64,000 nucleotides of DNA, taken from Tubulanus polymorphus (Eukaryota > Animalia > Nemertea). The notes below the pieces were generated by a model. It saw nothing but the letters and a program-made list of their open reading frames with translations. It had not been told where the DNA came from and did not search any database. Numbering within the stretch: the first letter of the stretch is position 1; each line of letters starts with the position of its first letter. Position numbers and translations under genes: made by a program. Location: positions 9,920,001 to 9,984,000 of the forward strand of contig NC_134031.1 in the NCBI RefSeq assembly GCF_964204645.1, in the 5' to 3' direction. Of this stretch, positions 2,341 through 64,000 are shown one piece after another.

Positions 2341-2348
2341 CCAAAATA

Positions 2349-5088: not shown

Positions 5089-5296
5089 ATTCAACTAGCT
5101 TGTTAATCTATTATATTTTTAGTTACATTCTAGTTAAATTTTAGTTAATTGTAGTTGAAACAAAAATCAAATAAAATTCAACAAGAAATAAATAAAAATA
5201 ATAATATTTCAACTAGCTTGTTAATCTAGTATATTTTTAGTTACATTCTAGTTGAATTCTAGTTGCAACAACACAACTAATTTTTTTGTTATAAAA

Positions 5297-5830
5297 ATGG
5301 GTGGTGAAAAGAAAATCAAATCTACAAATAATGATGTTCCAATTGAAAAAACTTTGGATGATTTAGGTATAACAGAAACAAAATTAACACCTGATAATGG
5401 TGCTTTGAATGATATAACAACAAATAATAAATATGAATATTATCTTTATTTCAAACATCAATTAGAAATATTAATTGCATCGGGAAAATGTAGAAATTTT
5501 ATCGGTAAAAATGTTACTTATAATGAATTAGATATAATGAAATCAGATCAAATTATTAAATTATTTAAGATTTATGAAACTGCGAGAATAGCTTGAATCA
5601 ATGACGCGATATCAGAAAATGTAGTAAAAGGTTAAGGTAAATTATGTAATTCTTTGTTACCAATTGAAGATGAAAATAGATTACATTCCGATTTAAAAAA
5701 TGATTATTTAGTTATGGCTGAATTAAATAAATGGATTGGAAATTTATTATCTCAATTAGGTGGATTTATGACATTATTATCAACTGGAGTTATAAAATTT
5801 TCAAATATTGAAAGTAAAAAATTTTCTTTA
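5297..5830 (+). pseudogene. Conserved Polinton hypothetical protein (homolog of 49997-50599)
   Basis: IEKTLDDLGI...YEYYLYFKHQLEILIASGK...LKNDYLVMAEL; internal stops. Confidence 0.8.
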
Positions 5831-5834
5831 ATAA

Positions 5835-6202
5835 ATGTTCGAAGTGGAAGAGGTGAAAGGATTAACTGTGAAGAAAAAAACAGAGATCACAGAAACAAAT
5901 TAAAGAGTCTCGCAATTAGGAATTAAATCACAAGAATATAAAAAAGCTAAACAAGAAAAAATAAATAATGCAAATGTTGATAATAATGGTGAAAATATTG
6001 TTATTTTTACTCCTCTAATAATAGAATATTTGATAAATATTTATATTTTACGACTCGATTTGTAATTGGATTCATTTTGATTGGATGTAGTTGGTATAAA
6101 AAATCAAATAAAATTTGTCTTGTTAATCATTCTGAAACTACTACTGTTAAAAATAAAAATACTTCTGAAATTCAAAAATTCACAACAAAAAAAATGGATT
6201 AA
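5835..6202 (+). pseudogene. Small basic single-TM Polinton protein (homolog of 31487-31900 and 50592-50961)
   Basis: RSQKQI...LGIK and FILIGCSWYKK motifs; frameshifted. Confidence 0.7.
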
Positions 6203-6349
6203 TATTTTCGAAAAATAGCAAAAAAAAATTTAATTCATTAAAAAATATTTCTATTTTGTATCAATTAACTATCTTACTACTTTTGTCTATCTATGAGGAG
6301 CAATTAAATTGTCCAGATAAGTCATTTCGGATTCTTGATATTTAATTAA

Positions 6350-6949: not shown

Positions 6950-7233
6950 TTGACTAACCCGACTAGAATGTTACGTTCAGCAGATGATCTTTTGCTTACT
7001 CAAGCCCGTTCAGGATTAGCTTCTCTTGGAGATAGAGCCTTCTCAGTCACTGCTCCACGTTTGTGGAACAACCTTCCTCGCCCTGTAAGAGTGGCTTCGA
7101 GTATCTCTGTCTTCAAGAGAAGCCTCAAAACACATTTGTTTTCACCACATTAGATTTATTCAGTAATAAAGTGTCCTTGATCACTTAAGTGGATTCTGGC
7201 ACTTAAAATACCATAATAACAATAATAATATTA

Positions 7234-8036: not shown

Positions 8037-8900
8037 ATGGGAACGAAAAAGAAGAAAAGCCAAACCAACTTGAAACGAAATGGTAAAGAAACCTTTAGCC
8101 CAGAGTTTATAAAGTCTAGGACAAATTACCGTATCATGAAACGTAGGTATAAAAGTGCGAGAACCTGCCATAATAAAGTAGAAATGAATAGGGCCTGTAC
8201 ACAATATAAGAAAGTCATCAGAACTGACAAAAAAAGAAAGTACGAAATATTAACAACATACAAATGAAACGTCATCAACCAAAAAGCTATTGGATCTTTT
8301 TTTTAAAAAAAAGAGATAAGCCATCCATGTGTAGTGCCTCATTGGAAGATCTCTTTAGTTTCTATGTTGATCTTAACAAAAATCCTGTAGACGGGGAAAA
8401 TTTGCCTGAAGCTCTGTTTAACGTTAGTGATTTTACTCTAGACGGTGACGACTTACTTGATAGCCACTTTACAGAAGACGAAGTCATTAATGGTATAAAA
8501 AGGTTGAAAAACAACAAAGCGCCAGGAATAGAAAAATTACAAATGAAATTCTTAGGGCATCTCATGCTTTCATATCGCCTACACTGGTCCTATTATTTAA
8601 TAACATTCTAGATACTGGAGATATACCAGACGCGTGGAGTATTGGTACCACCACCCCCTTTTATAAACAGAAAGGTGACGTTACAAACCCTGACAACTAT
8701 AGAGGGATTACCCTACTTAGCTGCATAGGAAAGTTATTTACTAGCCTAATTAATGACCGCCTTACGGCCTACTTAGAAATGAACGATCTTTTGCTGAAGA
8801 ACCAAGCCGGTTTCAGAAAGGGGCACTCGATGCTTGATCATATCCTTTCATTGAAGTCAATAATTGATATATTTCTGAATTGTAATAAAAGGCTCTGTGT
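8037..8900 (+). mobile_element. Non-LTR retrotransposon ORF2 fragment (N-terminal part of the RT), frameshifted
   Basis: LKNNKAPG, NYRGITLLSCIGKLFTSLINDRL and NQAGFRKGHS..DHI motifs. Confidence 0.85.
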
Positions 8901-8996
8901 CTATTGGTCTATTGTAGAGAAAACGGATCCAATTTATATTGATCCAATTTGTCCTTGCCTAGGCCTCATATCATAACCAAATATACGTTGTTAATT

Positions 8997-10790: not shown

Positions 10791-11159
10791 TTATCAAATG
10801 AAACACCGGTACTGAGCTTTACTGTCTCAAACAAACACAGTATAATTGTTGCGTTTATTAACGGACTCATTGGATTGAACTTCAAAACAAAATTTACGAT
10901 ATTTAGGTGGGTTGTTATTCAATAGGCCTACGACCAATCTGTCCGGATGTTAGGCCTACGCATATACATAGGCCTACATAGGCTAGTAGCCTCTACTAGG
11001 TTAAGCGTTCGCTGTGGGGGAAAGAGATCGTTCGCTATGTCGCTTGAAGTTTTACGCGACCTTAAGGCTTTAGTATAGTGGCTGAAAAGGGCTATGCGTA
11101 AAAAGCACTAATATGCAAATCAGGGCGACATTATGACAAAACGACAAAACTAAAATAAC

Positions 11160-12265
11160 GCGACAAAACAATAATTTTAGTTTTGTCGCCCGCGACAATT
11201 CATTATTTTGGTTTTATCGCCTGCGACAATTCATTAATTTGGTTTTGTCACCCGCGACAAATCAATATTTTGGTTTTGTCGCCCACGACAATTCAATATT
11301 TTGGTTTTATCGCCCACGACAATTCATTATTTTGGTTTTATCGCACGCGACAATTCAATATTTTGGTTTTATCGCTCGCGACAATTCATTTTTTTGGTTT
11401 TGTCGCCCGCGACATTTCAATATTTTGGTTTTATCGCCAGCGACAATTCAATATTTTGGTTTTATCGCCTGCGACAATTCAATATTTTGGTTTTATCGCC
11501 AGCGACAATTCATTATTTTGGTTTTATCGCCCGCGAAAATTCATTTTTTTTGGTTTTGTCGCCCGCGACAATTCAATATTTTGGTTTTATCGCCAGCGAC
11601 AATTCATTATTTTGGTTTTATCGCCCGCGACAATTCATTTTTTTGGTTTTATCGCCCGCGACAATTTTTTTTTTGTCGCACGCGACAATTCAATATTTTG
11701 GTTTTATCGCCTGCGACAATTCAATATTTTGGTTTTATCGCCAGCGACAATTCATTATTTTGGTTTTATCGCCCGCGACAATTCAATATTTTGGTTTATC
11801 GCCTGCGACAATTCAATATTTTGGTTTTATCGCCAGGGACAATTCATTATTTTGGTTTTATCGCCCGTGCCAATTCATTATTTTGGTTTTATCGCCCGCG
11901 ACAATTCATTAGTTTGGTTTTGTCGCACGCAACAATTCAATATTTTGGTTTTGTCGCCTGCGACAATTCAATATTTTGGTTTTATTCGCCAGCGACATTT
12001 CATTTTTTTTGTTTTATTGCCCGCGACAATTCATTATTTTGGTTTTATCACCCGCGACAATTCATCAGTTTGGTTTTGTCGCACGCGACAATTCATGATT
12101 TTGGTTTTATCGCCCGCGACACTTCATTTTTTGGTTTTGTCGCCCGCGACAATTCAATATTTTGGTTTTATCGCCAGCGAAAATTGATTATTTTCATTTT
12201 ATCGCCCGCGACAATTGATTATTTTGGTTTTATCGCCCGCGACAATGCATTTTTTGGTTTTCGTT
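11160..12265. repeat. Minisatellite, 31-bp unit (TCGCCCGCGACAATTCA(A/T)TATTTTGGTTTTA), about 35 copies
   Basis: Direct tandem array with no unique spacers. Confidence 0.97.
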
Positions 12266-13198
12266 CCCCACTTTATTAGCTTTTGAATAATTAGGCCAAT
12301 TAATAGCGTAATAAGGACTTATGCTTTCGCCTATTTTGAAGTCGATTAATCTGATATAGTGTCGAATATTAAGGTCATTTTGGCAGATTCTTTTTTTTTA
12401 AAAGTGATATTAAAGCGATCATTCAAGTGATCCTACTTAATGAAAGATCACATATTATTTCTTTTTCTTAAGATGTGTTGGTTACAAAACTCATCTATAC
12501 GTCCCGTGCATTGGCGACATCCTCTAATAAGAGGAACCTCTTTACTTCATGGAGTGATCGAATTCCAATCTCCGGAACATGTGTATCCGAATTTGGAAGT
12601 TTCGCATCACAAATAAGCGATATTTTATATAACTGTTAAGAGCGCTTCTCATCGCTTAGTATTCTTACGGCTAGGTGGTCTAGATTTTTTAGCAACTGAA
12701 GTATCAACTTTTTGCCTGCGATTAAGGGATGTCCATTATATAAATTACAAAACGCGGGATATCGGTAATGGGGCAATTTGTGTAATGTTGAAACTATCCA
12801 CAAATCAATGCAATGCGCATGCGCGAATGCGTTGGACTTAGAAAATTCTAAGAGAATTCCACGATATATGGACACGTCGACATGATTATGTCGATATATC
12901 TTGACGTTATCACGACAAATTTCGCTTTTCGCCAATTTTCCACGGGACAAGCCGTCATTTGAAGACACGTCTAAATGTAAGACGAGGACGCCAGTAATAT
13001 GACGAGGGTTTCAAGTCGTCATGAATATGTCGACTTGTTGCGAAGAAAGTGGTCGAGAAAACGAAATATGTCTTCAAAACGTCACGATATGTCGACATAT
13101 TCATGTCGACTTGACGCGATATATCGCGATATATCGACATAAATATGACGACTTGTCGAGCTGGAACGCGACATCTCGAGGCCCCTTATCGCTTCCGT

Positions 13199-13443
13199 AA
13201 ATATCTTCCAACATTATCGACAACATAATTATTATCATGGCCCGTTACTTTTATATCAGCTGATAAATGAATACTATTTGGAACATAAAAAGTATTTTAT
13301 GTTAAACGAGGAATTCTAACATATAACGTTTCATCAGGATTAATATTAGAAGGATTATGAGTAATGATATGATGAGATATTTCTGCTTTAATAGCATTTG
13401 ATATTCTAAAATTCTTAGAAGGATGAATATAACTACCACTCAT
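13199..13443 (-). pseudogene. MCP N-terminal fragment
   Basis: Reverse complement of the 1285-1530 region (THNPSNINPDETLYVRIP...DNVGRY). Confidence 0.85.
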
Positions 13444-13463
13444 TTATTAAGAAATAAAATTAC

Positions 13464-14490
13464 TTATTTATTCTTTATCGTATTCACTAATCCAAAAATA
13501 TAAGCACCAACAATTGTAATTAAAAATAAAATAATGTGTTCAGCAGCAAAACTAATAATATTTCCAGCAGATTTTATTACAAAACCAACAATTGATGCTA
13601 TAACTACGGTTAAAGCAGCAGCAGATTTTTTAGATAATTCCCATAAAAATTTTGCTAATTTTATCAAACCACCCTTAACTTTATCTTGTATAGAATTATT
13701 ACTCGGAGGTTTATCAGGTGGTTTATTAGGATTTGGCGTAAATTTCAATGAATTTAATATAGCTAAACCTATTGATGTAAATATTATAGTTACAGCAGTT
13801 ACAATTGAAAGAATTGTTATACCTTCTAACTTAAGTAATAATTTTATTCTATCGTTCAATTATATATCAGAATTTGGTTTTATTACCAAATCAATAAAAA
13901 TAACTTTTAATCTATTTGTATTATAATCATATGGTTTTAATAATAATTTCATTTCTTCTTTCAGAAATTCTATGTTATATTCTAGTTTATCAATTTCTTT
14001 TTTAAATCCAATTTCTTCAATAACTTTATTATCTCTATATAATTTTAATTTTTCGATTTCTTTAATTTCATCAGTTTTTTCTTTTTCTAAAGTTCTAATT
14101 TTAAAATCTCTTTTACTTTTTTCATGGGCAAATTTATCAGCTTTATTTCTTATACTAATAATTTCTCTAATTGCTTTATTAGAAAATATATTTAAATCTT
14201 CTAATTGTTGATCTGTTGCATCAATTAATCCATTTGGTAAAGGTTTTTCAATTCGAACTTTATTTGATTTAAGTTTAGTAGTTATGGAAGTTATATTCTG
14301 TTCAGAAGTTGTTTCTGTTTCTGATTTTTTTTTAATTATTAAAAGTCATCAATTCTTTGGCTAAAATCATTTAAATTATAATCTCTTTCTGCTTTTGTAA
14401 CATCAGTTATTTTATTACTATTACTTATTCTTCTAATTCTACCTGGATCTAAATCACTCAAAGTTGATTTTGCTAATATTTTATTTTGTC
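13464..14490 (-). pseudogene. Coiled-coil/C-terminal hydrophobic protein fragment
   Basis: The 131-aa ORF DRIKLLLKLEGITILS...AAEHIILFL plus upstream coiled-coil match 55293-56317. Confidence 0.8.
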
Positions 14491-14579
14491 TCAAATTATT
14501 TTTTCAAACTGTTCACCAATACCTTGCAATTTACCATGCGTTCTAAAATCGGAACTAATATCTATATTAAATTCATTAC

Positions 14580-15072
14580 ATATTTTTTAAAACTTAGAAA
14601 GTTTAATATTGTTATCCAATTCTTTAAAATATTTCGATTCAGGTAGAGGACATTCTAATTCATTTAATATAATTCTAATTTGAAAATACGTGTGTAATCT
14701 AAATATTGTATAAATAAATTTTAAATCTGAATAAGACAAATTGTTATATAAATTATTCAAGTGATCATTCCAACTTATACCACACCCTGTTGTTGCACAA
14801 TAAACAGCAAAATCTAATTTATTCTGCCAATATTTCATATTAGATTTTATTTTATATATATTATATTCATCTCGAGTAAAAGTAACTTCATTGTATTAAA
14901 TATATTTTCCATTCTAGACATAAACAACTTTTTATTTCAGTATCATAAATTTCTAAATTATATAATGAAAGCAAAACTACATTTTTATATGTTATGATAC
15001 TAATAAAATCTATAGGTGGAATATTATATTTATAATTGAATTATTATATTGGAAAGCTTTTGCAAACCCCAT
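14580..15072 (-). pseudogene. Fragment of the conserved 450-aa Polinton protein
   Basis: KYWQNKLDFAVYCATTGCGISWNDHLN. Confidence 0.85.
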
Positions 15073-15090
15073 TTATATAATGAAAAAATT

Positions 15091-15511
15091 AATAATTCAT
15101 TAATTCTTTCAATAATTTATCTTGTTCTTCAATTGTTATACTACCATTTAAACTAATAATATAATCTAATGTATTTTTTAATTTATTAATTTCTTTTATA
15201 TTAGATTTTATTTTTTCTTTATTACTTTTTATATTCAATTTTGAGCTTATTCCGGTTAATACACTAGAACTTAATCCTAAAACGCCAATTGATAGAGCTA
15301 AAGGTGTTAATGGACTGAATATTGCTAAAAATATTATTACAGAACTAATTGCAACTGAACCACTAATAATAAAATAATATATAATTTTAGATTTTAAATA
15401 TTTTTTCTTTTCACTTTCAAATTCTAATATTTGTTTTTCTAAATATATTTTTAATTTAGTTTAATTTATATCATGAGGAATAATATTAATATTATCAACT
15501 TTATCAACCAT
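15091..15511 (-). pseudogene. Two-TM coiled-coil small protein (homolog of 58195-58620)
   Basis: IIPHDIN...SGSVAISSVIIFLAIFSPLTPLALSIGVLGLSSSVLTGISSK. Confidence 0.75.
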
Positions 15512-16004
15512 TTATTTAGCAAAAAAATTATTTATAAGTAAATTTATATTCTACAAATATAACAATAATTGTTCCACCTAAAATCCAAATTATTTCATAT
15601 TTTTGTTATCAATATGCCTAAATAAATAACTACCACCCACCAGTAAATGCTAAAGCGTTAATAATTGCGTTCCTATAATAGTTATAATTGCAGATAAAAA
15701 TTATATAACCCTGGTTTTAGATAAAGATGATGCCTTTTATTTTTTTCCTGAACCATAAACAATCTATGTTCAATAGTTTTATCGGATACATTCTAAAAAG
15801 AATTACATAAACTAATATTTACTTATCTACACAATTTCTAAATTCTCTACGTAATTGTACTAGTAAATTATGTGATTTATAATTCAATAGTTTTCTAGAA
15901 TCAACATATATTCTATATTCGTTTAATTCACCCATTATTTATAATACACAAACAGTTATCTCGAACTACTAAAAAATAGTTTTAATAAAATTTTTCCTTA
16001 GTAA

Positions 16005-17296
16005 ATGGTAGAGAAGATACCATGTGAAATTTGTGGTAAATTGCAAGCTAAAAGTCACATAGCTAGACAAATGAAAAAAACATGATGAAAATTATAAACC
16101 CCCTAAAATAAACTGCCCAAATTGTAATAAAACATTATCTAGAAATTATTTCAAAAAACATTCAGAGAAGTGTAAAAATAATGACTTAATAGTTAATGTT
16201 GATAGTTGAAAGTAATAATAATTCTGATGAAGTTGAACCTGAAATTATTTGGAAAAGACCTTTCTTATTCTATGATAAGAATGATACAAAAGATCATTTC
16301 TGTGAGCATTGTCGAATAAGATATGGCCTGAAAATATAGAAGATCGGGAGAATCATCAATTTAATGAAGTACATTTAAATAAACTTTCTACTAAATTTGA
16401 AAAAGAATTTGATGAAAGAAAAAATAATCTATTAGAAAAAATAAAATATGAGCGTAACCAGATAATAAAGAAACACTTGAAAAGTTAGAAAAACAATATA
16501 ATGAATTAGCAAGAAAAACATATTATTGTAAATATTATACATTGATTATTATAACAAGTAATTCAAATCTACATAATAGAACAATATAACATAAAGAAAA
16601 CGTAAGAAAATACCAAGAACTTAACGAACATCTATTACCGAGATTTGATAGAAAAAAATGCCCACAATGAATTTATGAGTACTTAAGACAAGACGATTCT
16701 GTGGTATTTTGTAATGAATGTGGATGGCAAATTAATTTATGGGGTGACGAAAAGATTTTCTTATAGAGCCAAAATTAAAATATCTAGATGAAATTTTTAA
16801 AATATTTTCTATAGAAGATCATACACCGGAATATAAGCAATGGCTTGAAAAAATGAAAATGATAGAAAATAAAAATGGTAAAATAACTAAGAAAGATATA
16901 ATAAAAAGAATTATTCCGTCAACACAAAAGAAAAGAAAATGTATTTATATTTATTATTTAACGATTATTATAAAAAAACCTAAATTAACAGAAGATATGG
17001 AAAATATAAAAGAAACATTCACAAACATATTAACATATTATGTGGTTGATAAAATAACAGATACAATTAATTGTGAATTCTTTTTGAATAAGATTGTAAA
17101 TTTTTTAAACATCGATATTATAATTCCATTTGATGAATTAATAGACAAAAAGAAACAAAGAGAGCGAGATGAAATGTGGCACAATATAGAACTTTATTTA
17201 AATGAGAAAAATGAAATGGAAGAACCTAAACAATTAAACGAAAATGAAGAAGCCAATAGTGATTTCGAGTATGATGATATTGATTTTATGTTTTAA
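16005..17296 (+). pseudogene. Multi-zinc-finger Polinton accessory protein
   Basis: MVEKIPCEICGK...H, CPNCNK...KHSEKC and further CxxC pairs; frameshifted. Homolog at 40846-42890 (minus). Confidence 0.65.
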
Positions 17297-17875
17297 TAAC
17301 CACAAGGTAATGTTTTTATTCCATCATTCAAAATATATCTTTTATCATCGAATGGATTTAAGCTAGTTTTTTCAACTTCATTAATATACATCTCGTGATC
17401 TTCTGATCTTAAACAATTCATTTTATGTTTCATTACTATTGTGTTATATAAACACTTTATATAATCTTGAAATTCTATATGTTTATCAACCACATGCTTT
17501 GTTATTCCTTTTAACTTTTAGCTTCATGATCTTTTGTTCTACAACTATACATTTTACTTCTTATCCCAACAAATTCAATCATTTCATCACCCCCTAGTTC
17601 ATCTTTAACTTTACCAGGTCACTTTTTATTATCATTGCTAAATAATTCACGATCTTTGAATGATCTATGGATAATTGCTTAAGTCAAAATGATGTTTTAA
17701 TGTTTTTAAGTCTTTTGTTATGTTATTTGTCTTTATTTTTAGTACGTAAGGATCTGTATTCTTTAGGATTAATGGAAATCCACAATTAAATGTTCCATCT
17801 TCAGTTGATAAATCATAAACGCCTTAAGTATTAAAACAATTTGTTTAGATTTAATTAATTCAATATTCATATTAA

Positions 17876-18069
17876 CCCTTTCAGTGCTGACTAATCAATA
17901 CCCTATAGTGCTGGAGATGATTTGAAAATTTTGAAACATTCCGCCCTAGAGTGTTGAATAACGGGAATACCACTAATTACTAATTACACCAATACCCCGC
18001 AGTGCGGTGTACTAGCAAAATCCATCACCGATTTATAAACCGCACTGCGGTACAGATGCACTGAAAGGG
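17876..18069. mobile_element. piggyBac-like MITE (194 bp) inside the intein
   Basis: TTAA-CCCTTTCAGTGC...GCACTGAAAGGG-TTAA; removing it restores the reading SLGF-NMNIE. Confidence 0.85.
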
Positions 18070-18754
18070 TTAAAACCTAATGAATTGCATAATATATTTA
18101 ACCCAATTGCACATTTTCCTTTCTGTGCAAATGAAATGGTTTTTGTTTTTGTAAATTGTTTAGCACCATCTGCAGCATAGAATCGTATAAACCACCCATT
18201 TTCTTAAATTATATTTTGCGTTTAATACATAATCCGGCACTATCTTTTCTTTGGTTGAAGTATTACTTTTAACTATTGCATGAATATAGAATTCATCATT
18301 ATATTTTATAGCAAAATCTTTTAGAATATTTACGAGTATGCTATAAACTGCTGATGATTTCATATGATCCATGATTCTAAATGTTTTATTTCAGTAAACT
18401 TCTTGATAATATTTCTTTATTCTTTCTAATAATTTCAAATCTTGATTACATAAATATCAACAATATTTATTGTATCTAATAAATTTATGCACACCTGCTG
18501 AACCATCTCCCATGAAAAATCCTTTGATAAAATATTCTTTTTCTTCTAATGTTTCAGGTTCTATGTTATAGATATTACTAATTATTTCATCAAATGACAA
18601 ATAATTCATTCTTGGTTAAAATCTGTTATGTAATAATTCATCTCCAATATTTTTATCAGTTGCTTTTATTTCATCACCATTTTGTTTAATTAAACTGTGA
18701 TCTTCAGTTACATATACAAACCCTGATTTAGTTCTAACTCTATAAATATTTTTA

Positions 18755-20027
18755 TTATGGTCGATGACCATATAGGGATCGTCGCTGGTAAAAATTCTGC
18801 CGTTCACCGAACAACACCCGTAGTATCTCTACTGCCATGGATATAGTCCCATAATGCTGTATCGATAAAGAACTGATAATCCAATAAAAAGTTGTCTGTA
18901 ACGCGTCATTTGCCTATATGAATGATCCTAGCTATGCCTGTTGTACCAAAGGTACCAAATTCGTGATGAATTATGGAAAGTTTTGAGGCACACGAAGGGC
19001 TCACCATATCAGTGAATTGTCTATATCAGTTTTACTCAGCAATGAAGTATCATCCCCATCACTATCCTCACAGGTGCTCGCGTACTAATACATTTGTAAG
19101 TAGTTCATAGATGCTGCCCAGTTCGTGGTTTACGCTGTCAGGAAGAGTATCGGTAAGGTGGTCTCTGCGGTGTAAGTCATTCACTAGCCCGGATTTTATT
19201 TCTTGAAAGCACTGCTAGCGAAGGATTTTCTTCAAGTAATGAAAATTACCAGTAATGCCAGCCGGTAGTGAGTTATACTATAGTACTTGTAATAGTAGAC
19301 TAAAAGTTCAGTGCTGTATACACATAGCGAGACAAGCGGCTGTGTCCCGCCTCGTATAAACACAGGCCGACTCAGATTGACTGACGAAAGATAAACTATT
19401 CGGCGCGCGGTACTAGAAAAAAAAGATATAGTGAGATAAGCAGGGCTTCCGTGATCATTAAAAAATGTCCGTTCTCTTTATTTGGAAAAAATTGTACAAG
19501 CGTATCTATGCCAGGTTAAGCACATCAGGCGTCAAGCCCAAGGCAAAGGGGAAAGTTAGATGATTTTTAGAGCCATTTTAAGTGCATTCCTATGTTACCA
19601 TGTGGTCTTTGGTTAATAAAATTTACCACTAGCAGTAGTGCCTGTCACATGAACTTCATTCATTGAAGCATCATACGCACAGAGAACACAGTTTCATTGG
19701 TTAACGCGTGGACTATTCCATTATGGGAAATAGGGTGGGTAGGATGTCTGGGACGCATATTAATATTGTAAAAGATCGTTTATATTGAAAGAAACTAAAA
19801 TAAGAACACTTTTCTTAAAAAGTGTCTTTAGAAAAAAAATAATCAGTTTATTTTCACAATTCCTCAAAGAATTTTTCAGGACTTTGAGAAAATAGGACCA
19901 CTTTTGTCTGGGGGAAAAAGTCCATAATGGTTAAAAGAAACCCTAGAAACACGTCAATTGCTTTCACTAAAACTGATATCTCCTCATTCACTGTCTTCGA
20001 CCATATGGACCTTATGGTCCTCTTGTT
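18755..20027 (+). mobile_element. HINE-like element family C, copy 1, inside the intein
   Basis: 5' TATGGTCGATGACCATA hairpin; 3' subTIR TCGACCATA + GGACCTTATGGTCC hairpin + TCTTGTT. Removing it rejoins HKA-NKNIYRV. Inverted copy at 34235-35589. Confidence 0.85.
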
Positions 20028-23000
20028 GCTTTATGACTTATAATATTTCTTAATTTTTTTCCATCCATTTTTTGTCCAAACATCCATTAATTCATTTATT
20101 TGTATTAACTCTTTTTCACCATATGGAATATATTTAATATATAATTTCATTTTGTTTTGGAATTATTTCTGAAATTCTTCTTATTAATATTTTATTATAG
20201 TATTTTGATAATATAGGAGTATCACCTGTTACAGAATCAAAATATAATATTTCAATATGTCTTTCCCCAAAAAGTGGCTGTAAAACATGATAATAAAAAT
20301 CATACGTTAATAATTTTGATACTTCTAAAACAGTTGAACCAATGAATATACGTTTATTAAATTTCATTGGCGTTCTTTTTAATTTTACTGCTGTTAGATT
20401 ATCTTCAAATCTTTTATTTCCTAAGTGTCTATGACTAGACTGTAAATGTCTAAGTCGTTCAGAATTATTTACTAATTCAATATCATATCTATGTCTAATA
20501 TTTTCTCATGTTTTTCCATAAAAACTATTATTCATTAATTCAAAAAGATCTTTTTCAAAATTTGTTTTAGATATTGTTGTCTGTTGAGTATTGAAATCTA
20601 TATATTTTTCTAACCACTTCGATTGATTAAATTCAATATATCTATGTACTTTCTTTAATTTCATTCCTTGTTTTAGATGAAATTTTAACATTCTATGATG
20701 AACAATATACTTATATTTATTATTTTGTGTTAATATTAATTTTCCTGTAAAAACATGGTCTTCCAGTTTTATTTTTTCTGATATTCACTTAAATAACTAT
20801 CATCTACGGCTAAATGTTCTGAGCAATATGGTTAGTTTCTTGTTTTAAATTTTATATTTTCAGGATATTCTAAATCAACAACAAAGAAATAACCAATTAG
20901 AGCATCATCTTCTAAACTCATAATTGCGCTTTCCCAATTTGTTTTATCATCATTTTACAACTTCTGTTAATATAAAATTTTCTTATTGTTGTGGTTGCAT
21001 CATTGCCCAACCATATAAATCATTAGCGTCGATATACAATAATTTGTATTCATCATTTGCTTTAAAATACCTACCTCCCATAACACCACTAATTCCACCT
21101 CTAATTGATTTTTCAAATAATAAAACCATGTCTGGTTCTTTTAATAAATCTAATTCTACATTTTTATATTTTAAACCACATTGCCAGGTTAAACCAGGAC
21201 TTGAATAACAATAACAAGGATCAACATTAAAATAATTCAAATTAACTTCTCTTAATTTTTCAAATATATCAGCCAATATCATAACATCTGATTTTAAGTA
21301 TAAATCTTCTAATTCACCATGATTTTTTATCTTAAGATGATTCCAAATATTTAATGTTCTATTAAAAACTTCATCTTTCACATACTCCTCTTTTAATCGA
21401 TCATTAAATTGATCTTTTAATAATTTTGTTACATTAAAATCATCATGTGTTTTATAAAATGAATAAGGAATTGCGCCTTTATATCTCAATAATTTAAAAT
21501 CTTGTTCATTTGGAAAATAATATCGAGTTATTACAAAATCATTATCAACTAAACTTTTAGCTAAATTATCTAATGAGCTTGCTAAAAATCTATAAGAAAC
21601 TTAAAATCTAATGCAACCAAATTGAAATAAAATATAATTTTCAGATGTTTTAGCTAATAGTTTAAAATCATATTTTCTTACATTCAAATCATTTATAGCA
21701 TTATATTCTTCTATTTCTTCATTAATTGTGCCTCCTAATTTTCCTGATAATTGTTTTATAAATAGATGAGTATCATAGCCTGATAAATTATGAAATAATA
21801 TCGGTACGAAATTTACTTTTTTAGCTTGTAAATTAGAATCTTCATGAGCAGCTCCATGATATTTTGAATTTAAATGATCATGATCTCTTACTTTTTTGTC
21901 AAATGAATAAAAACGTTTTTCACAATAACAACAATGAGTTGCATAATTGAAATCAATTTCATCTTCTTTTGTCATAACTATTCTTTTATTTTCTTTATTA
22001 ATTGTGCAATTCAATTATTTTATTACAAAATTCATTTACTACATCTTGACCTCTAAAAGAAATATATTGACTTTCATATAATTCAGGATGATTTGATTTT
22101 ATATAAATTCCATAAGCAGCAGCTCTTTGATGAACTTTTTAAATTGTGTTTATGATTGGTGGGTCTTGAATTATGTGTTCATTTAATTCATTTCCTTTGT
22201 CCATTGATTTTAAAAATTGCTTCTTGTTATATATTTCTTTTCTATCTTGATCAGTTAATTCTTAATTCAACGATTCAAAATCCCCATAAATTACAAATGG
22301 TACTATATTCTTAAATTTATGATTAGTAAATTTTAATTTATAATCTTTTTCTGTTGGCATTATTAATTTGCAAAAATCTTTATTATCACATCAGTCTTTA
22401 TGTTTTGATAATGCATTCTCAGTCTTAAAATTAGATAAACATTTTCTACATAGATAAATTTTACGATGATGATCCCTTTCTGTTCTAGAGAATAAATCAA
22501 TTTGTTTTAACCACATATAATGTTCATTTCCATCTTTTTTATAGTATAATAAATCTATAACATTTTCATCATCATAATATTCTGTTAAACATAAAGCTTC
22601 CAATGTATAATCTTTAATATTTTCACCTTTTGTATCTGGTAATTGCATTAATTCGAATACATTAATTTTTTAAATTATTAACTTTCTATTTTAGGAATCA
22701 TCTTTATAGTTACTGGATATTGATCAATTTTATATAATGTTTCATATTTCCGATAATCTGTTATTCAAAAAACATTTTCCTGAGTTGGGTGTAAACAACT
22801 AACTAACTAACAATAATTGCCCACAGAAAACATTTGTTGTCTTCATTTTGAACATTAATAATTGCCTTTGATAAAAATGGTAATTTAATATATCTTGATG
22901 TTTTAATATCCTTTTCTGTTTTAAAGTTTGAATCCTTCTTAAACATTTTATTACTTTTTGATGTTTTATTGCCTTTTGTACTATAAACATTTAAATCTAA

Positions 23001-23175
23001 AAATATAATTTCATTCAATGTTAAACTAGAACCCTCAAAATATTTAAATTCATTAAATATTTTTTCTAATTTCTCTTTTATTTGTGTTTTTGAAATTATT
23101 TCTTCAGAGTGTGTTTGAATATTATAATCCATTTTTACTTCTGATTTTATAAAACTTACTTTTCCAGAAATACTA

Positions 23176-23440
23176 ATTTTTGGATATTCAACATCTGTTA
23201 CAAGGTCCATTATTTGTTTCATTATTTCAATATATTTGCTATAGTCTTCTATTGTTGCTCCTTTAAAAATCTAAATATAATAGCTGCAAGACCAATTTAA
23301 CTACGTAATTTTTGGATATTCAACATCTGTTACAAGGTCCATTATTTGTTTCATTATTTCAATATATTTGCTATAGTCTTCTATTGTTGCTCCTTTAAAA
23401 AATCTAAATATAATAGCTGCAGGACCAATTAAACTACGTA
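23176..23440. repeat. About 132-bp tandem duplication in the polB 5' region
   Basis: AATTTTTGGATATTCAACATCTG...GACCAATT.AACTACGT occurs twice; MKQIMDLVTDVEYPKI appears in two ORFs. Confidence 0.9.
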
Positions 23441-25073
23441 ATGTTTCTAAAATTTCAATTGTATCTTTTATTTCTAGAGTATCAATATACTTTCTATCAT
23501 TTTCCATGTAAAGTTTATTTGAAATAGATTCAGTTTTTGAAGCTGGTTTTTTACTTGTTGAGGTTTATCATCAAAATATTCTGTTCCTAAAATATTTTTA
23601 TTTAAATTTTGTTGGTGTTTCAAGATGTCTTTTATAATTCCTTTTTGCTATAAATTCATTATAAACTTCACATATTATTTCATCCACATTCATATTTTCT
23701 AATCGTTCTTTTCTTTCATTGAATCTTTCTGGAGTTTCAAAATCTATAACATTTTTTTTTGTGATTTGCAGTTTTTTCATGTCGAGATTTTTTAGATTTA
23801 TCGATGAATTTTTTACAATATGTACAATAATATCTATATTCATTAACATCATTGTTTTAACATCACAAATTTTTTACCTTTGGTCTTTTTTACATGGAAA
23901 CAATATCGCAAAAAAATCATCTACGTTGCGCACGGGAAATTTGTCTAATAGCGTAGATTTCAAGAATTAATTCTAAAATTATAACTTCGTAATCACTTAT
24001 AGTCACTATTAGAATGAATGGCAGCTTATTGGAACACTGCCAGTCTCCTGGAAACTTAAACTAGGCCAAATGTCAAGGCATGTTTTCACACGATGCACAC
24101 TAGAATTCAAATATACGTAGCTCATAGTCGGTCGGCCATTTTTATCAAAAATAAAATTTATTTCAATGAATCCCAGAAAAAAAGTTTTCACTCGGTACCT
24201 ATGAAGTCGGGTTGGTCGGGTTACGGCAAACAGACCATTATTTTGGGATGGCCTAAAATTCATATGATCTCACATATCAGAGGGTGGCTGAATATTGGGT
24301 CTTGGAAACCTCTTCCAATGTTGGCCACGGAAGCTAAAATACCGTACAGAAGAAATCGGCTATTAGATCGTTTAAGGTCCTTGAATTTGCCACTACAATA
24401 TTCAGACCTCGACAGACCTTATAGTTTGCTGCTTACTATTTTCAGGTCACAAGAAATTACAATTCATTAAAAATTCTATCGAACAGAAAACACAGCGCTC
24501 ATCTTCTGCTACGATTATTCAGCCTATTTTCATGTCAAACGTTCACGCGTTACAGCATCACCGTAGTGTACCGTACGAGCTTGTGTGTGTGAGGCCTCGT
24601 GTAAGTGAATATTCGCTTACACCTCCATGTCAATCAAAACAATCACCGGGTATTAAAATGAAACAATACCTATGGCTGATGAGTGAAATAATTATATCCT
24701 CACCAGCAATGAGCATTTGAAATCGGCACGATTACGGCACCTAGTCCAATGAAACGTACGCCATTCTATGGCTTTCCCATAATTATTTTAGTAGCGCCGG
24801 AATTCCTAAAAACAGCCAATCCCATTCGCTCGTAGAGACGACGCCCCCAATCGAGGTCATTGCAATTTTATACGCGAGAGCTAAGAATTTTCCCGCCAAA
24901 AACAGTTTTTCGTAGAATTTTCACTCAGTTGACCATGTCATCGACGGAGGTTCGCCATCGATTATATGTCGTTTAAGCCGAGAACCAATGAAACAAATGC
25001 TCACATAAAAAACGTACCGCGATTTTACATGAATTGGCTCAATGCCAACATCATATCGCTGACAAACGTAAAC

Positions 25074-31486: not shown

Positions 31487-31900
31487 CTAATTAAAAATGA
31501 AATTATTTTTTTGCTTTTTTTCTAAAATATCAATCCATTTCTTTTTTATTGTGAATTTTGGAATTTCAGAAGTATTTTCATTTTTGATAGTAGTAATTTC
31601 AGAATTATTAATATCATAAATTTTATTTGATTTTTTATACCAACTACACCCAATCAAAATGAACACAATTACAAATCCAGTTGTAAAATATACATATTTA
31701 TCAAATATTCTATTATCAGAAGGAGTAGAAATAACAATATTTTCACCATTATTATTAACATTTTCATTATTAATTTTTTCTTTTATAGCTTTTTTAAATT
31801 CTCTCGATTTAATTCCTAATTGCCGAGACCATTCTATTTGTTTCTGTGATCTCGGTTTTTTCTTCACAGTTAATCCTTTCACCTCTTCCACTTCGCTCAT
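31487..31900 (-). CDS. Small basic single-TM Polinton protein (137 aa, 3' end frameshift-extended)
   Basis: KKKPRSQKQIEWSRQLG, TM segment FVIVFILIG, TAAATG start. Confidence 0.65.
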   Translation of the reverse strand: MSEVEEVKGLTVKKKPRSQKQIEWSRQLGIKSREFKKAIKEKINNENVNNNGENIVISTPSDNRIFDKYVYFTTGFVIVFILIGCSWYKKSNKIYDINNSEITTIKNENTSEIPKFTIKKKWIDILEKKQKNNFIFN

Positions 31901-31929
31901 TTATTGTAGAAAAATTTTTACTTTCAATA

Positions 31930-32400
31930 TTTGAAAATGTTATAGGCCTATAGCGTCATAAATCCACCTAATTGAAATGATAAATATCCAATCCATTTAT
32001 TTAATTCAGTCATAACTAAATAATCATTTTTTAAATCGTAATATAATCTATTTTCATCATGAATTGGTAGCATATATTTACATAATTTACTATAACCTTT
32101 TACTACATTTTCTGATATCGCATCATTAATTCTAGCTATTCTCGCAGTTTCATAAATCTTAAATAATTTAATAATTTCATCTGATTTCATTGTATCTAAT
32201 TCATTATAAGTTAAATTTTTACTAATATAACTTTTACATTTCCCAGATGCTATTAATATTTCTAATTGATGTTTGCAATAAAGATAATATTCATAATTAT
32301 TGTTTGTAGTAATATCATTTAAAGCACCATTATTATCTGGTGATAATTTAGTTTCTGTTATACCTAAATCATCCAAAGTTTTTTCAATTGGAACATCACT
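31930..32400 (-). pseudogene. Conserved Polinton hypothetical (homolog of 49997-50599); its 5' end lies beyond the HINE at ~33750-33780
   Basis: YEYYLYCKHQLEILIASGK...ARINDAISE...LKNDYLVMTEL. Confidence 0.8.
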
Positions 32401-32401
32401 A

Positions 32402-33749
32402 TTTTTAGGGTTTCTGCTGCCTCGGCAGAAACCCTATTGTATTCCTGCGGATTATTATTTTAACATATTTTCCACTAAATTTTGTCACATAAAAATCATC
32501 TATCAGATTCGACTACTAACAGCTTTTAAACGAAATGTTAAACTCTGATAGTAATATAATAGTCTCTTGCTCCGCGTAGATTCTACGGATGTAGGCCTAC
32601 TGTGCATCCTATTTTGAACTTAAAATTACTTAAAGATAGCACCGATGGAAATAGCAATCGTCGATCATGGCGCGCATACTGGCGCGAATCTGAATGTTCG
32701 TGACGTCATCTCATAAATAGATAAAAAGGAGGGCTCCGAGAATGTCCAAATCACAGGTTATTGTGAATAACTGGGGTTCGACCATTCACAAGTTAAAAAT
32801 GTACTTCCTTGTTTGTGAAGTAAGTTTATTCATACTGTTATCAAAAGCAGTTCCTTTTAAACATTCTATAATAGTATAGTTTTGTTCGTGGATACCAATA
32901 CTTCGAAAAATCAACGGCGGTTTATTTATTTACTATACCGGTACGCGTTTTCTTAATTGAATTGAATTGGTCCGGTCCAAAAGGCGGGTCATACTAGTTG
33001 GCGTCAGAAAATGTCAGCGTCGGTGATACCTTGTTATCGTCGATATTAAACGGTCTAAAGTCAGTTTATACATCACCTACATTACAAATTGGAGGTCCCT
33101 TTGTACATGTACATCACATCGTGACGCAGCGGCGATGGTAATGTCATAGAAGAACAAAGTCAGTTGAAAATACCTACCCACTGCACCGATAAAGAATGAT
33201 TGCTAGCCAGAGACCAGTGACAGTCTGGTGAGTGATGGTACCGTTCGTGATTATGTTTTTACAATGGTTATTGGACGTCAATTTCATATGTGAATTGTAC
33301 TCCCCATCTGATCGCTTGACTTGTCAGACTGACTCCTCTACTAATAGTAAAACTATAAGGCCTTCCCTCCTGCATAGTTTACCCTATAGGCCAAATTTGT
33401 GCTTTGGGCCAAATTCGGTTTTCTTATCTAGTCGACTTTTTTCGGAACGAATAATAACCGAATATGCGCTTAAACTGTCACTAGGGAATGGTAAAAACAC
33501 CGTAGCTTCGTTCTTCTCGATGTTATTTCCCCCAAAACCTGGCACATTAGTACTTTGCGCGTAGTAGCACATGAGCGTAATAGCACATGTGGGTCAACAC
33601 ATCCATGTTGTGAGTTGACTCCTAGGTGGCACTCTTTCAAAAAAACGGAATGTAACGAACTGATTTCGGGTGAAATCTTTGCTCGCATCCTTGAACGACA
33701 TTCTATCCAGAAAGGCAGAAACCCGTTATCGCTGCTTGCAGCTATATTT
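32402..33749 (+). mobile_element. HINE-like element family A, copy 2
   Basis: Same termini and body as 2349-3688; inserted in a T-run without TSD. Confidence 0.85.
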
Positions 33750-33865
33750 AGATTTTACTTTCTTTTCACCTCCGATTTATATAACAAAACAATTAATTGT
33801 GTGGTTGCAACAAGAATTTAACTAGAATGTAACTAAAAATACAATAGATTAACAAGCTAGTTGAG

Positions 33866-34110
33866 TTTAGATAAATTCATATTTAAATGGGTGTTGTAAT
33901 CAAAATAGTAATTTTGACCTTTTATTATTTTTCAATTTATCCATACATTCATCATGTAAATCATTTGGAATAATATCATTTTCCTCAAGCGCATTTTTCA
34001 TCGATTTTCTATCTTTATTGTAGAATAATACTAAAAATCTAATGTTTTCTCTAAAATCTTTAACAATTGAATTATATTTTTGATTTTAAACCCACATTGT
34101 TATCCCAAGT
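33866..34110 (-). pseudogene. Packaging ATPase C-terminal remnant
   Basis: YNSIVKDFRENIRFLVLFYNKD on the minus strand. Confidence 0.75.
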
Positions 34111-34234
34111 TTCAAGTTTTATTAGTAAAAATTTAACTTATAATGAATTTGATACAATGAAATCAGATGAAATTATTAAATTATTTAAGATTTATGAAAC
34201 TGCGAGAATAGCTAGAATTAATGATGCGATATCA

Positions 34235-43742: not shown

Positions 43743-43758
43743 TTTTCTCACTTTATAA

Positions 43759-50961: not shown

Positions 50962-50967
50962 AATAAG

Positions 50968-52074
50968 ATGAAAAAAGAACAATATTTAAGAGATTTATAT
51001 TATAACCCAGAAAGTGAAGTATCATATTCTAACGTTTCAGAATTATGGAATAAAATTAAATCTGATAATGAAAATGGTAATGGTGCCGTATGGCACCCAC
51101 ACGGTGATATAAAATATAGTGAACTAAGATTATGGTTACAAAATCAACCAACATATCAAATCCACAAGAAAATGGATAAAACTTATTTAACAAGAAAAGT
51201 TATGGTTTCATATATCGATCAACAATGGCAAGCAGATTTAATTGACATGAAGAACTTAGAGGAATACAACAAAGGATATTTCTGGATATTAAATGTTATA
51301 GATATATTCAGTCGATACGCATGGTCAATTCCAATCAAAAATAAAACTGGAATAGAAGTTACAAATGCTTTTAAATCTATATTTAAAGAAGATATTCCAG
51401 ATAAGATACAATTTGATGAAGGTAAGGAATTCTATAACAAACATTTTAAAAAACTATTATCTGATAACGATGTAGATTATTTTTCAACACATTCAGATAA
51501 AAAAGCATCTATTATAGAAAGATTTAATAAAACATTGAAAACTAGAATGTGGAAATATTTTACTGCAAATGAAACATATAAATATATCGATATATTAGAT
51601 GATTAAGTGAAAGGTTATAATAATTCTAAACATAGTTCTATAAATATGAAACCTATACAAGCTAGAAAAGAAGATAATTCAGAAATAGTTTGGAATAATT
51701 TATATGGAGCGTTTGTTACACATGATTCCGGTGAACCTAAATTTAAAATAGGACAACACGTTAGAATATCTAAATATAGAAAAACATATTATAAAGGTTA
51801 TACCCCTAATTTTACAGAAGAAATCTTCAAGATTAAAAAGATAATATTAACTAAACAATTTGTTTATAAACTAGAAGATTTAAAAGATGAAGAAATATTA
51901 GGTTATTTCTATGAACAAGAATTATCACTTGTACCAAATCCAGATGAAATAGAATACGAAATAGAAAAAGTATTGAAAACAAAAACTCTTAAAGGAAAAA
52001 AGTATTCTTTGGTGAAATATAAAGGATATGATGATAAATTTAATGAATGGATTTTATCTAGTAAAATTAAATGA
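50968..52074 (+). pseudogene. Retroviral-type DDE integrase with chromodomain; single in-frame TAA at 51604-51606
   Basis: WQADLIDM, VIDIFSRY, QFDEGKEF, IIERFNKTLK; chromodomain YEIEKVL...LVKYKGYDDKFNEWI. The two track ORFs are in the same frame. Confidence 0.93.
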
Positions 52075-52078: not shown

Positions 52079-52690
52079 ATGAATAAAGATTTATTTATAT
52101 TTGAACCGCATAATATGTTAGTTACTGGTGTAACCAATTGTGGTAAAACACATTTCATATTAGATTAGTTAGAAACTATTTATAAGAATCATTTTGATAA
52201 TATAATATTATTCTTCCCTACTTATGAAATGAATAAAACATATAATAGAGATATAGTTAGGATGAAAAAGTTTATTATATTAGATCCTAAAACAGTAAAA
52301 GAAAATTTAGATAATTGTATAAAAATAGCAATTGATACTTATAAAGGATCAAATACATTATTCATTATAGATGATTGCGCAAATTTACATGATTCAAAAG
52401 TTAGAGAAAGTGAGTTATGTTATCTAGCTTTCTCTGGAAGACATTTCGGGATAACAACATGGGTTTTAAATCAAAAATATAATTCAATTGTTAAAGACTT
52501 TAGAGAGAATATAAGATTTCTAGTTTTATTCTACAACAAAGATAAAAAATCTATGCAACAATCATTGGAGGAAAATCAAATTATACCTACTGAATTACAT
52601 GATGAAAATATGAATAAATTAAAGAATAATAAAGGTTCAAAATTATTACTGAGATTACAATTTCCATATGAATATAAATTTATAAAATAA
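52079..52690 (+). pseudogene. A32/FtsK-HerA-type packaging ATPase; single in-frame TAG at 52166-52168
   Basis: Walker A GVTNCGKT, Walker B LFIIDD, SGRH and VLNQ motifs. Confidence 0.92.
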
Positions 52691-60788: not shown

Positions 60789-63700
60789 TTATAATACATA
60801 TTTTTATTAAAATTTGATAAACACGTTAGAATTCTTTTCATTATCTCGTTCTCTTTTGTTTCTTCTGTTTTAAATTTTAAGTATTCATCTAAATTACAAC
60901 CATAAGCAACTGTATGAATTCCATCATCTAAAATATATCTTTTATCATCAAATGGGTTTAGACTATCTTTCAATTTCTTCAATAAACATTTCATGATCTT
61001 CAGATCTTAAACATCTCGTCTTATGTTTTCTAACTTCTTCATTGAATATACAATTGATGTAATCTTTGAAATGAATATTCTTTTCTACTACACTTTTGGT
61101 TATTCCTTTAAACTTTTTAGCTTCCTGTTCTTTAGTTTTATATGAATACATTTTCGATCTAATACCAATGAATTCAATCATTTCTTCACCGCCTAATTCA
61201 TCTTTGAATTTACCAGGAACTTTTTTATTATCATTGCTAAACAATTCATGATCTTTAGGATAGTTACTAAAATCAAAATGATGTTTTAATGTTTTTAAAT
61301 CATCAGTCATGTAATCAGTTTTTATCTTTAATATGTAAGAATCGGTATCAAAATATAATATTTCTATATGTTTTTCTCCAAAAAGTGGTTGTAATACATT
61401 ATAATAGAATTCATACATAAGTAATTTTGATAATTCTAAAACTGATGCTCCAACATAGATTGGTTTATTAAATTTCCTTGATGTTCTTCTCATCTTAACT
61501 GCGGCTAAATTTTCATCAAATATTCTGTTACCAATGAACTTAGGATATGATTGTAAATGTCTAATTCTTTTACCATTACTGACTAACTCAATATCATTTC
61601 TATTTCTAATATTTTCACAAGTCTTACCATAGAATGCATTATTCATTAACTTGAAGAAATCTTTCTCGAAATCAGTTTTAGCTTCAGTTCTCTGTTTGGT
61701 GTTAAAATCTATATATTTTTCTAACCACTTAGATTGACTAAATGAAATATATCTATGTACTTTTTTTAGAACCATTCCTTGTTTTAGATAAAACTTTAAC
61801 ATTCTATAATGTACTACATAATTATATTTATCTTCTTGAGTTACCATTAACTTTTCTGTATGAATATGATTTTCGGGTTTAATTCTTTTTTGGTAATTTG
61901 ATAGTTCTTCATGAGTTACAGTTTTATGTTCGGGACAGTAAACTAGATTTCTAGATTTAAATTTTTTATCTTCAGGATATTCTAAATCTACAACAAAAAA
62001 GTAACCAGTATCTGAATCATCTGCAATATCTAGGATTCTTTTCTTCCAATCAAATTTATCATTATTTTCATGTTGTAAAACTTCACTTATTTCAAATACT
62101 CCATAAGGTTGTGGTTCCATCATTGCCCAACCATACAAATCATTTGCATCTATATATAATAACTTATATCCAGGGTTATCATTTACATTGAAATATCTAT
62201 CGCCTAATACACCCGTAACTCCTCCTCTTATAGATTTTTCAAATAATAATAATTGATCTACATTTGTTAACAAATCCATTTTTATATCTGTAAATTTTAA
62301 TCCACAATCCCATGTTAAACCTGGTGATGAATAACAATGACATGGATCAATATTAAAATATTTTAGGTTTACATCTCTAAACCTTTCGAATATATCGGTT
62401 AATAATAATACATCTGATTTTAGATATGAATCTACTAATTGTCCATGATTTTCTATTTTGAAATGATTCCAAATATTCAATGTTCTATTATATACTTCAT
62501 CTTTAACATATTCATTTTTTAATTCATCATAGAATTGTTCTTTTAATAATTCAGTTATGTTAAAATCATTATGATTTTTATAGAAAGAATATGGAATTGC
62601 TCCTTTATATCTCATTAATTGGAAATCATCATCATTTGGGTAGTGTTGTTTTAATATTTTCAATTCATCATCAACTAATGATTTTGATAAGTTATCTAAT
62701 GAACTATTTAAAAATCTATATGAATCTATAAATCTTAGGCAACCAAATTGGAATGATATATAATTCTCAGATGTTTTAGCTAACATTCTAAATTTATAAG
62801 TTGGTATTTTATCTTTTGATCTATTTGAATTTAATCTTTCTATTTCATTATTGATTTCTTCTATTTTATGGCATAACTGTTTGATGAATAAATGTGCATC
62901 ATATCCTGATAGATTATGAAATATAACTGGTACAAAGTTAATTTTCTTAGCTTGTCAGTTACAATTCTCATGTGCAGCGCCTCTAAACTTTCCATTCAAA
63001 TGATCATGGTCTCTTACTTTTGTATCTTTATAATTAAATGTCTTTTCACAATAATAACATTTATCTGCAAACGCAAATTCTTCTTTATCTTCTTCTGTCA
63101 TTATAATTTCTATATTTTTATTTAACTTTTCATTAAATTTTATTTCATATTCAATTAATAAGTCACAAAAATGATTGATAACATTTTCATTTCTGTAATG
63201 ATAATATTCACTTTTAAATAGTTCTGGATAATCAGATTTAATATATAACCCGAAAGCTGCAGCTGATTGATGAATCTTTTTAATAGTATTTGTTATTGGT
63301 GGTTCATCTGAAAAATCATTTTCATTAGAATTTAATTTCTTTCTTTTATAATGTATTTCTTTTCTATCTTGATCAGTTAGTTCCTTATTTAATGATTCAA
63401 AATCTCCATATATGACAAATGGAACTTTATTTTTGTAATCATATTTTTTGAATTCTAATATTCTATCCTTTTCATTTGGTAAAACTAATTTACAATAATC
63501 ATGATTTTCACATAATTGTTTATGATTAAATAATGTACTTTCATTACTGAATCTATGTAAACATTTTCTACAAAGATATATTTTATGGTGATCATTTTCT
63601 GATTTAAAAAATAAATCGATTTGTTAATCCACATATAATGATTCTCATAATATAGTATATCTATAACATCATTTGAATCATAATCTTTTGATAGATATAA

Positions 63701-64000
63701 AGGTTCTAATGTATAATGTTTTATGTTGTTACCTTTTGTATTTGGTAATTTGATTAAATCAAATACATTTATTCTCAAATTATTATCTCTTTCTATCTTT
63801 GGGATGTTTTTAATTATAACAGATACTTATGTATCTTATCATTATTTTCAAATTGTTTATAATTTGTTAATCTATAAGTATGTTTATTATAATCTTCAAC
63901 TGGGTATAAGCAACTTATTATAGCCCCTTGAAAACATTTATCATCTTCATTTTGTACATTTATTACAGCATTAGTTTTAAATGGTAGTTTAATATAACTC
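60743..64000 (-). pseudogene. polB: Protein-primed family B DNA polymerase, copy 3, intein-free; 607-aa core intact, frameshifts at both ends; 5' end outside the window
   Basis: YGDFES, RDHDHLNGKFRGAAH, FHNLSGYDAHL, YLKSDVLLL, YIDANDLYGWAM, KLMNNAFYGK, YFDTDS, PGKFKDE and KGI motifs. Confidence 0.96.

Follow-up and report, generated by a model that had tools for sequence, protein, structure and literature searches.

In the stretch of 64,000 nucleotides analysed here (the window), the minus strand from 20235 to 17758 carries a Pol-c-type intein with two LAGLIDADG homing endonuclease motifs, and this intein interrupts motif C (D/TD, the slash marking the point of insertion) of the protein-primed DNA polymerase (family B; pPolB) of a Polinton. 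The window copy is decayed, and the genome around it is likely that of an animal. We propose that its intact relatives, which are predicted to splice, likely spread by homing and likely descend from a single arrival from a giant virus, and we give this reading as a whole a probability of roughly 80%. It is well supported that a known intein allele is found here in a new class of host protein, and among the nuclear genomes of animals this is probably the first intein family. We would also accept, at slightly better than even odds, a wider picture, in which a giant-virus-derived intein has long been homing among Polintons in animal germlines, across both main polymerase classes, still converts empty copies and forms the first metazoan-resident intein family.

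Site, span and decay of the intein

The minus-strand translation of the N-extein ends in YFD; the insert then runs from Ser (20235) to Asn (17758), and Thr-Asp follows. Blocks A, B (TxxH), the two LAGLIDADG motifs, F and G were all found in order, together with the class 1 residues (Ser1, block B TxxH, block F Asp, terminal Asn and Thr+1). An earlier interpretation of the window from its letters alone (the sequence-only reading) had described these motifs in this order, with Ser1, a terminal Asn, Thr+1 and about 336 net codons, in a reading frame broken by two insertions and by frameshifts. All of this was borne out: the insert is 2478 nt long and measures 1008 nt (336 codons) once both inserted repeats are removed.

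The exact site is given by a paralogous pPolB in a better preserved Polinton of the same window (60899..63999, minus strand; PF03175, E 4e-17), whose motif C is uninterrupted and whose empty site lies between 61347 and 61346. It is 70% identical in protein to the intein-bearing copy, and its DNA alignment with that copy stops at 17759 and resumes at 20236. Thus, the insert sits exactly at D/TD. The claim of a Pol-c site in a Polinton pPolB was therefore confirmed by the junction DNA, and PF03175 matches the paralog as well as the intact relatives P0002 and P0163 described below. Because the insert splits Asp from the Thr-Asp of motif C, the polymerase needs the insert removed. By class 1 chemistry, splicing of an intact copy would start with an N-O shift at Ser1 (aided by Thr and His of block B), continue with transfer to Thr+1 and end with cyclisation of the terminal Asn, which would restore DTD.

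Read along the minus strand, the N-extein (20236..23267, ending with the first Asp of motif C) contains stops and frameshifts, matches P0002 in tblastn in several frames at 34-58% and shares 72% DNA identity with the paralog. The N-terminal part of the intein (20027..20235; Ser1 and block A) has a frameshift near 20139 and one stop, and 18/28 and 16/25 of its residues are identical to the P0002 intein. It is followed by a non-coding repeat of about 1.27 kb (about 18757..20026, ends approximate), of which an 86% copy lies at 34235-35590. The core (18070..18756; block B TxxH, LAGLIDADG 1, linker and LAGLIDADG 2) has three in-frame stops and a frameshift near 18195, with 112/185 and 26/40 residues identical to P0002, so that the aligned N-terminal and central pieces hold four in-frame stops. 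Next comes a miniature inverted-repeat transposable element (MITE; 17872..18069) with 12-bp terminal inverted repeats and a duplicated TTAA target, which we take to be piggyBac-like. The C-terminal part (17758..17871; blocks F and G, Lys-Asn end) has a frameshift near 17820 and lacks about 20 codons of the splicing region present in P0002, and 16/21 of its last residues are identical. The C-extein (17299..17757) starts from Thr(+1)-Asp in a broken reading frame. With two repeats, frameshifts, stops and the C-terminal gap, all gained later, the window copy cannot encode the protein and is dead. The 1.27-kb repeat ends in short palindromes and shows no obvious duplication of its target; its two copies lie within Polinton genes, and it gave no Pfam match in six frames.

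Five of the six stop-tolerant pieces of the intein align in order to the intact P0002 intein (188/299 residues identical); no alignment was obtained for the sixth (17811-17867) where it would be expected. Furthermore, a profile built from 34 natural inteins matches no locus of the window but this one, reaching E 2e-51 for the central piece, and the best value in a shuffled window was E 1. The decayed pieces alone matched neither Pfam intein nor LAGLIDADG families and had no match in PHROGs or NCBIfam; a Rfam search gave no match, and single-sequence fold prediction was unusable (predicted local distance difference test, pLDDT, 40). The Hint and LAGLIDADG profile matches expected by the sequence-only reading are thus found in the intact relatives but not in the window pieces.

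Intact relatives and their likely spread among Polintons

The central window piece, with stops read as X, was used as query against 1.84 billion representatives and found 437 proteins at E <=0.001; it also found eight longer proteins among 418 candidates. The best long match, P0002 (JGI, 1693 aa), is an intact pPolB that carries an intein of 354 aa. A search with the P0002 intein region, in which 120 of 1214 matches were listed, added the intact pPolB-plus-intein proteins P0163, P0173, P0174 and P0178 and a truncated one, P0226; P0003-P0008, P0011 and P0054 are partial. P0163 exceeds the Pfam cut-offs for PF14890 (intein), PF05204 (homing endonuclease), PF14528 (LAGLIDADG_3) and PF03175 (pPolB). 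In P0002, P0173, P0174 and P0178, PF14890 is below cut-off; PF14528 is found on all five proteins, and TIGR01445 was matched in the intact relatives. Both LAGLIDADG motifs are kept in 5/5 of the intact Polinton inteins listed. The P0002 intein, modelled from a 34-row alignment (pLDDT 87, predicted template modelling score 0.88), resembles in Foldseek the endonuclease-bearing PDB inteins 7qsu (E 4e-17) and 2cw7 (E 2e-16), and in BFVD it matches PolB fragments of a phycodnavirus, pandoraviruses, marseilleviruses and a megavirus.

The penultimate Lys, which the sequence-only reading had singled out as replacing His, is present, but it is not unusual. It is shared by P0054 and P0178, with Ser in P0002 and His in P0163, P0173 and P0174, and it occurs in 91/179 viral-type relatives, including that of Acanthamoeba polyphaga mimivirus (APMV). 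Thus, a penultimate His is not obligatory in the Pol-c allele.

The long ENA contigs of the intact relatives suggest host chromosomes in metagenome assemblies. Among the IMG/VR and JGI loci kept, there was no evident intein-bearing pPolB (best identities 30-50%, junctions nearly all YGD where classified). No intein-bearing pPolB was found in the plasmid search, and the phage search gave two weak matches. Two other proteins may be recorded here. P0016 (ENA, 1483 aa) is a Pol delta-like PolB with zf-C4pol and REV3_N matches that holds the same Pol-c intein. P0229 has a viral-type Pol-c intein in a protein labelled as coming from a Heimdallarchaeaceae metagenome-assembled genome (MAG); it groups with viral-type rows and not with archaeal alleles, so it is possibly a mis-binned viral contig.

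To follow the intein among Polintons, the polymerase (extein) tree included 9 filled and 23 empty rows, the latter being 22 representatives of the 95 empty-site proteins among 120 matches, plus the paralog. The ratio of filled to empty rows is meaningless, because the search for empty rows was restricted to 364-1161 aa. On this tree, the presence of the intein needs 7 changes, all forced by starred branches, a number no fewer than shuffled labels commonly give. Meanwhile, the Polinton inteins form one clade, with Shimodaira-Hasegawa-type (SH) support of 100 in a quick mixture tree (10 rows) and 100/100 in careful LG+G4 trees. The comparison of intein tree and extein tree proposed by the sequence-only reading gave a single intein clade scattered over the polymerase tree.

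For every filled extein in the main group, there is a close relative with an empty site (65-93%). In addition, the P0178 extein is only 23-35% identical to the others over 78-233 residues, and its intein is 42-50% identical to the rest; a distant extein with a closer intein of the same clade points to horizontal transfer. We presume that the P0178 polymerase is of the Beta/pPolB2 class. The cluster of P0163 has 136 members on contigs up to 1 Mb, and the 15 members listed comprise 7 filled, 4 empty and 4 unclassified ones. Filled and empty proteins of the P0163 family plus P0288 are 97-98.6% identical upstream of the site and 93% identical downstream, and 84% identical within 30 residues of it. 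Such a drop at the site is the footprint expected of co-conversion or of escape from the empty site, and either implies an active endonuclease. These comparisons indicate that the Polinton inteins likely spread by homing. With its two motifs, the endonuclease would cut motif C where it is still empty, in a second Polinton copy of that nucleus; repair that uses the filled copy as template would then convert the site together with short flanks. The many genomic copies per cell would form a standing supply of empty targets, leading to cycles of gain, loss and escape. Many of the empty-site pPolBs P0280-P0399 have variant residues after motif C, and some of these sites may be endonuclease-escape alleles.

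Kinship with giant-virus inteins, host and alternatives

We extracted 194 complete Pol-c-type inteins from 279 proteins: 179 in RNA-primed-type PolBs, 12 in pPolBs and 3 unassigned. Not all viral-type rows are named, and some may be cellular. On these sequences, the Pol-c inteins of Polintons have giant-virus PolB inteins as their closest outside relatives, a kinship that the sequence-only reading had suggested and that identities, trees and BFVD matches all support. The Polinton inteins are closest to each other (40-47% between lineages) and have their next closest matches among viral-type inteins (at most about 44%), including those of Mimivirus PolB, ChoanoV1 PolB and giant-virus MAG contigs. 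A C-terminal PLI-type signature is common to the Polinton inteins and one viral subclade.

For the intein trees, 209 viral-type candidates were reduced to 83 representatives, of which subsets were used. When rooted on viral Pol-b inteins, the Polinton clade is nested among viral rows (98/89 and 95/86), and it is nested likewise (95/91) when rooted on seven archaeal Pol-c alleles out of 22 archaeal inteins extracted, a tree that carries a long-branch warning. These seven alleles replaced an earlier root on two non-allelic archaeal inteins, which had long branches and gave a weak, different root. The YGD flank of P0002 had also been considered as a relic of a viral flank, and this idea was dropped since YGD occurs in empty Polinton alleles too. 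By the best-fit rooting, the direction from giant virus to Polinton is likely, though not statistically forced. The intein would have entered once, from a giant-virus PolB in a common cell, and would then have spread over Polinton lineages with widely differing flanks. The sequence-only reading had proposed a jump from a large DNA virus into this Polinton. The jump is kept as the best-fit direction; the intein is indeed in this element, but it forms an old clade in several Polinton lineages, so that the transfer predates the window copy.

For the host, four sequencing runs of one organism (A) contain 10-17% of the sampled window words. In a whole-genome shotgun run of organism A (1934 Mb read, 85% likeness), depth was about 195 over the intein core, about 250-310 over the flanks and about 4,450 in the MITE bin, where 5,724 loose read ends were counted at 17872. 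Seventy-six reads skip the 1.27-kb repeat and 26 skip the MITE, and in one contig from another run the exteins are joined with the whole intein skipped (an empty-site joint). When likeness is raised to 96%, two bins in a different stretch fall to a depth of about 1.2. These data suggest tens to more than 100 intein-bearing copies in a large genome, as a rough estimate that does not imply intact copies. In the window, the clusters nearest to a reverse transcriptase fragment (8491-8973) have Mollusca, Arthropoda and Nematoda as their commonest phyla (3, 9 and 7 members with a record). Furthermore, 7028-7140 resembles the 3' end motif of an L2-like long interspersed nuclear element (LINE), a motif that we take to be L2-like and restricted to animals; this stretch gave no Pfam match. 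From this repeat content, an animal host is very probable. CpG ratios did not point to any particular host. For the animal-like genome of the sequence-only reading, the support thus comes from repeats and not from host genes.

Several observations weigh against the reading proposed here. Within the main group of pPolBs, intein identity rises and falls with extein identity, and three subclades match between both trees, as expected if one ancient insertion was inherited vertically and lost precisely many times, with no continuing homing. The similar divergence indicates that vertical descent and loss also contribute. As the full explanation, however, this is quite improbable, given that P0178, a pPolB of a distant class, holds an intein of the same clade, that the flank divergence is confined to the site, and that both LAGLIDADG motifs persist in all five intact inteins listed, which is unexpected under decay without homing. 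Concerning the origin, an approximately unbiased (AU) test does not reject a tree in which the viral rows form one clade excluding Polintons (delta logL 2.7, p 0.43). The two long non-allelic archaeal rows placed the root on the Polinton branch and lowered the Polinton support to 79/53, and a sister clade received SH 85 in the quick mixture tree and was left open by the careful trees. Together with the long stem of the Polinton clade, the AU result and the root shift would fit an old lineage of Polinton inteins that is sister to the Pol-c inteins of giant viruses, with an older common source or a Polinton donor and no nucleocytovirus transfer. We consider this unlikely, because the best trees with allelic archaeal or viral Pol-b outgroups nest the Polintons among viral rows, the PLI-type signature is shared with one viral subclade, and RNA-primed PolBs hold a far greater diversity of the allele (179/194, a sampling that follows database content).

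Doubt about the host arises from the lack of any host gene in the window regions scanned (two further regions lie outside the scan) and from related pPolBs in Mucoromycota, which make up most of one of the three Atlas clusters nearest to the P0163 extein. In addition, most organism A reads are less than 95% identical to the window copy. The same intein, with the same homing, might then reside in a fungus or protist whose large genome is rich in repeats, or an assembly error might lie in the contig. Against this stand the animal-led reverse transcriptase clusters, the LINE motif that we assume to be L2-like, and the high copy number of the intein, the MITE, the 1.27-kb repeat and the neighbouring repeats in one shotgun library. 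The repeats nested within the intein also argue against a chimera. A non-animal or mis-assembled source is therefore rather improbable, and we retain the animal host.

Comparison with known systems and the Polinton cluster

The Pol-c site was defined in the available text of PMC549080. The nucleocytovirus Pol-c inteins (APMV, in the same text, and ChoanoV1) have the same xxD/TD site, Ser1, Asn and Thr+1, TxxH, two LAGLIDADG motifs, a length of about 350 aa and a Lys-Asn end, and identity to APMV is 40-43%. However, the host of the Polinton inteins is the protein-primed polymerase of an integrating element of the 15-20 kb class, endogenous and multi-copy. Moreover, the Polinton flanks vary (YFD, YGD, YMD, ASD, SSD and YLD), whereas the viral-type flanks are YGD in 176/179. 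Archaeal PolB Pol-c inteins have the same position (YGD/S...N/TDS) but are much more distant and served as outgroup.

Viral-like polymerase inteins on nuclear scaffolds of Klebsormidium, Tetrabaena and a labyrinthulomycete (PMC10710043) are likewise virus-borne PolB inteins in eukaryotic nuclear genomes, but those hosts are algae and protists, and the main text of that paper does not contain polinton, animal or metazoa. HNH/VSR nuclease domains in Polinton pPolB2 (PMC10748475) similarly place a nuclease inside a Polinton pPolB. For those inserts, no splicing domain or LAGLIDADG is described in the main text (intein, Hint and LAGLIDADG each occur 0 times), whereas here a complete intein lies at the catalytic motif. 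In the available part of PMC11071308, pPolB nuclease inserts are interpreted as perhaps stemming from invasions by inteins. Hedgehog and other Hint domains of animals share the Hint fold, but they do not ligate two exteins and have no homing endonuclease (established knowledge, and the available text of PMC5784728). According to the same portion of PMC5784728, eukaryotic viral inteins occur only in nucleocytoviruses and unclassified viruses, and polintons are unmentioned. The accessible text of PMC8529194 describes metazoan genomes as without inteins, that of PMC8502044 mentions no intein, and PMC12220804, PMC3671162, PMC5718144 and PMC13768754, in the parts available, concern unrelated uses. 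Within open-access PubMed Central and bioRxiv, we found no Polinton polymerase intein described; Repbase, InBase, subscription journals and the supplementary intein lists of PMC5784728 and PMC10710043 were outside this scope.

If our reading is right, the intein is a counter-example to the absence of inteins from metazoan genomes, although within an endogenous virus and not in a host gene. It would also mean that an allele-specific endonuclease can pass between PolBs primed by RNA and those primed by protein, and it would be physical evidence of Polintons and giant viruses in one cell, which bears on animal Polintons as viruses or virophages. With multi-copy filled and empty alleles in a single genome, the cycle of homing can be tested in a eukaryote that reproduces sexually, and the intact relatives would supply inteins and meganucleases whose evolution likely took place in animal cells.

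The window as a whole is a Polinton cluster full of younger repeats. Nested or fragmented Polinton copies lie at 1-6300, 13200-23900, 31500-37900, 40600-47500 and 49000-64000, 70-92% identical and in both orientations. The intein-bearing copy has its gene order in common with the neighbouring Polinton copy (72-89% DNA identity), which encodes, on the plus strand, an rve integrase with chromodomain (50962..52074; PF00665, E 1e-9; PF00385, E 2e-5) and an A32-type packaging ATPase (52169..52690; PF04665, E 2e-6). Candidate open reading frames (ORFs) for major and minor capsid proteins and cysteine protease had no match in Pfam, PHROGs, NCBIfam or IMG/VR. No convincing ends with terminal inverted repeats and a 6-bp target duplication were found, the Polinton copies being fragmented or extending beyond the window.

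At the edge of the best-preserved Polinton, an ORF at 49292-49789 (plus strand) resembles Endonuclease VII/HNH (PHROG 1035, E 1e-4) and has six IMG/VR relatives at 46-51%, one from a 720-kb contig; it is possibly a second mobile nuclease common to Polintons and giant viruses. In addition, a tandem array with a 31-nt unit at 11114-12275 gives long spurious ORFs, and a Polinton ORF at 53107-53982 (minus strand) contains a 24-nt in-frame repeat and a C2H2-like motif.

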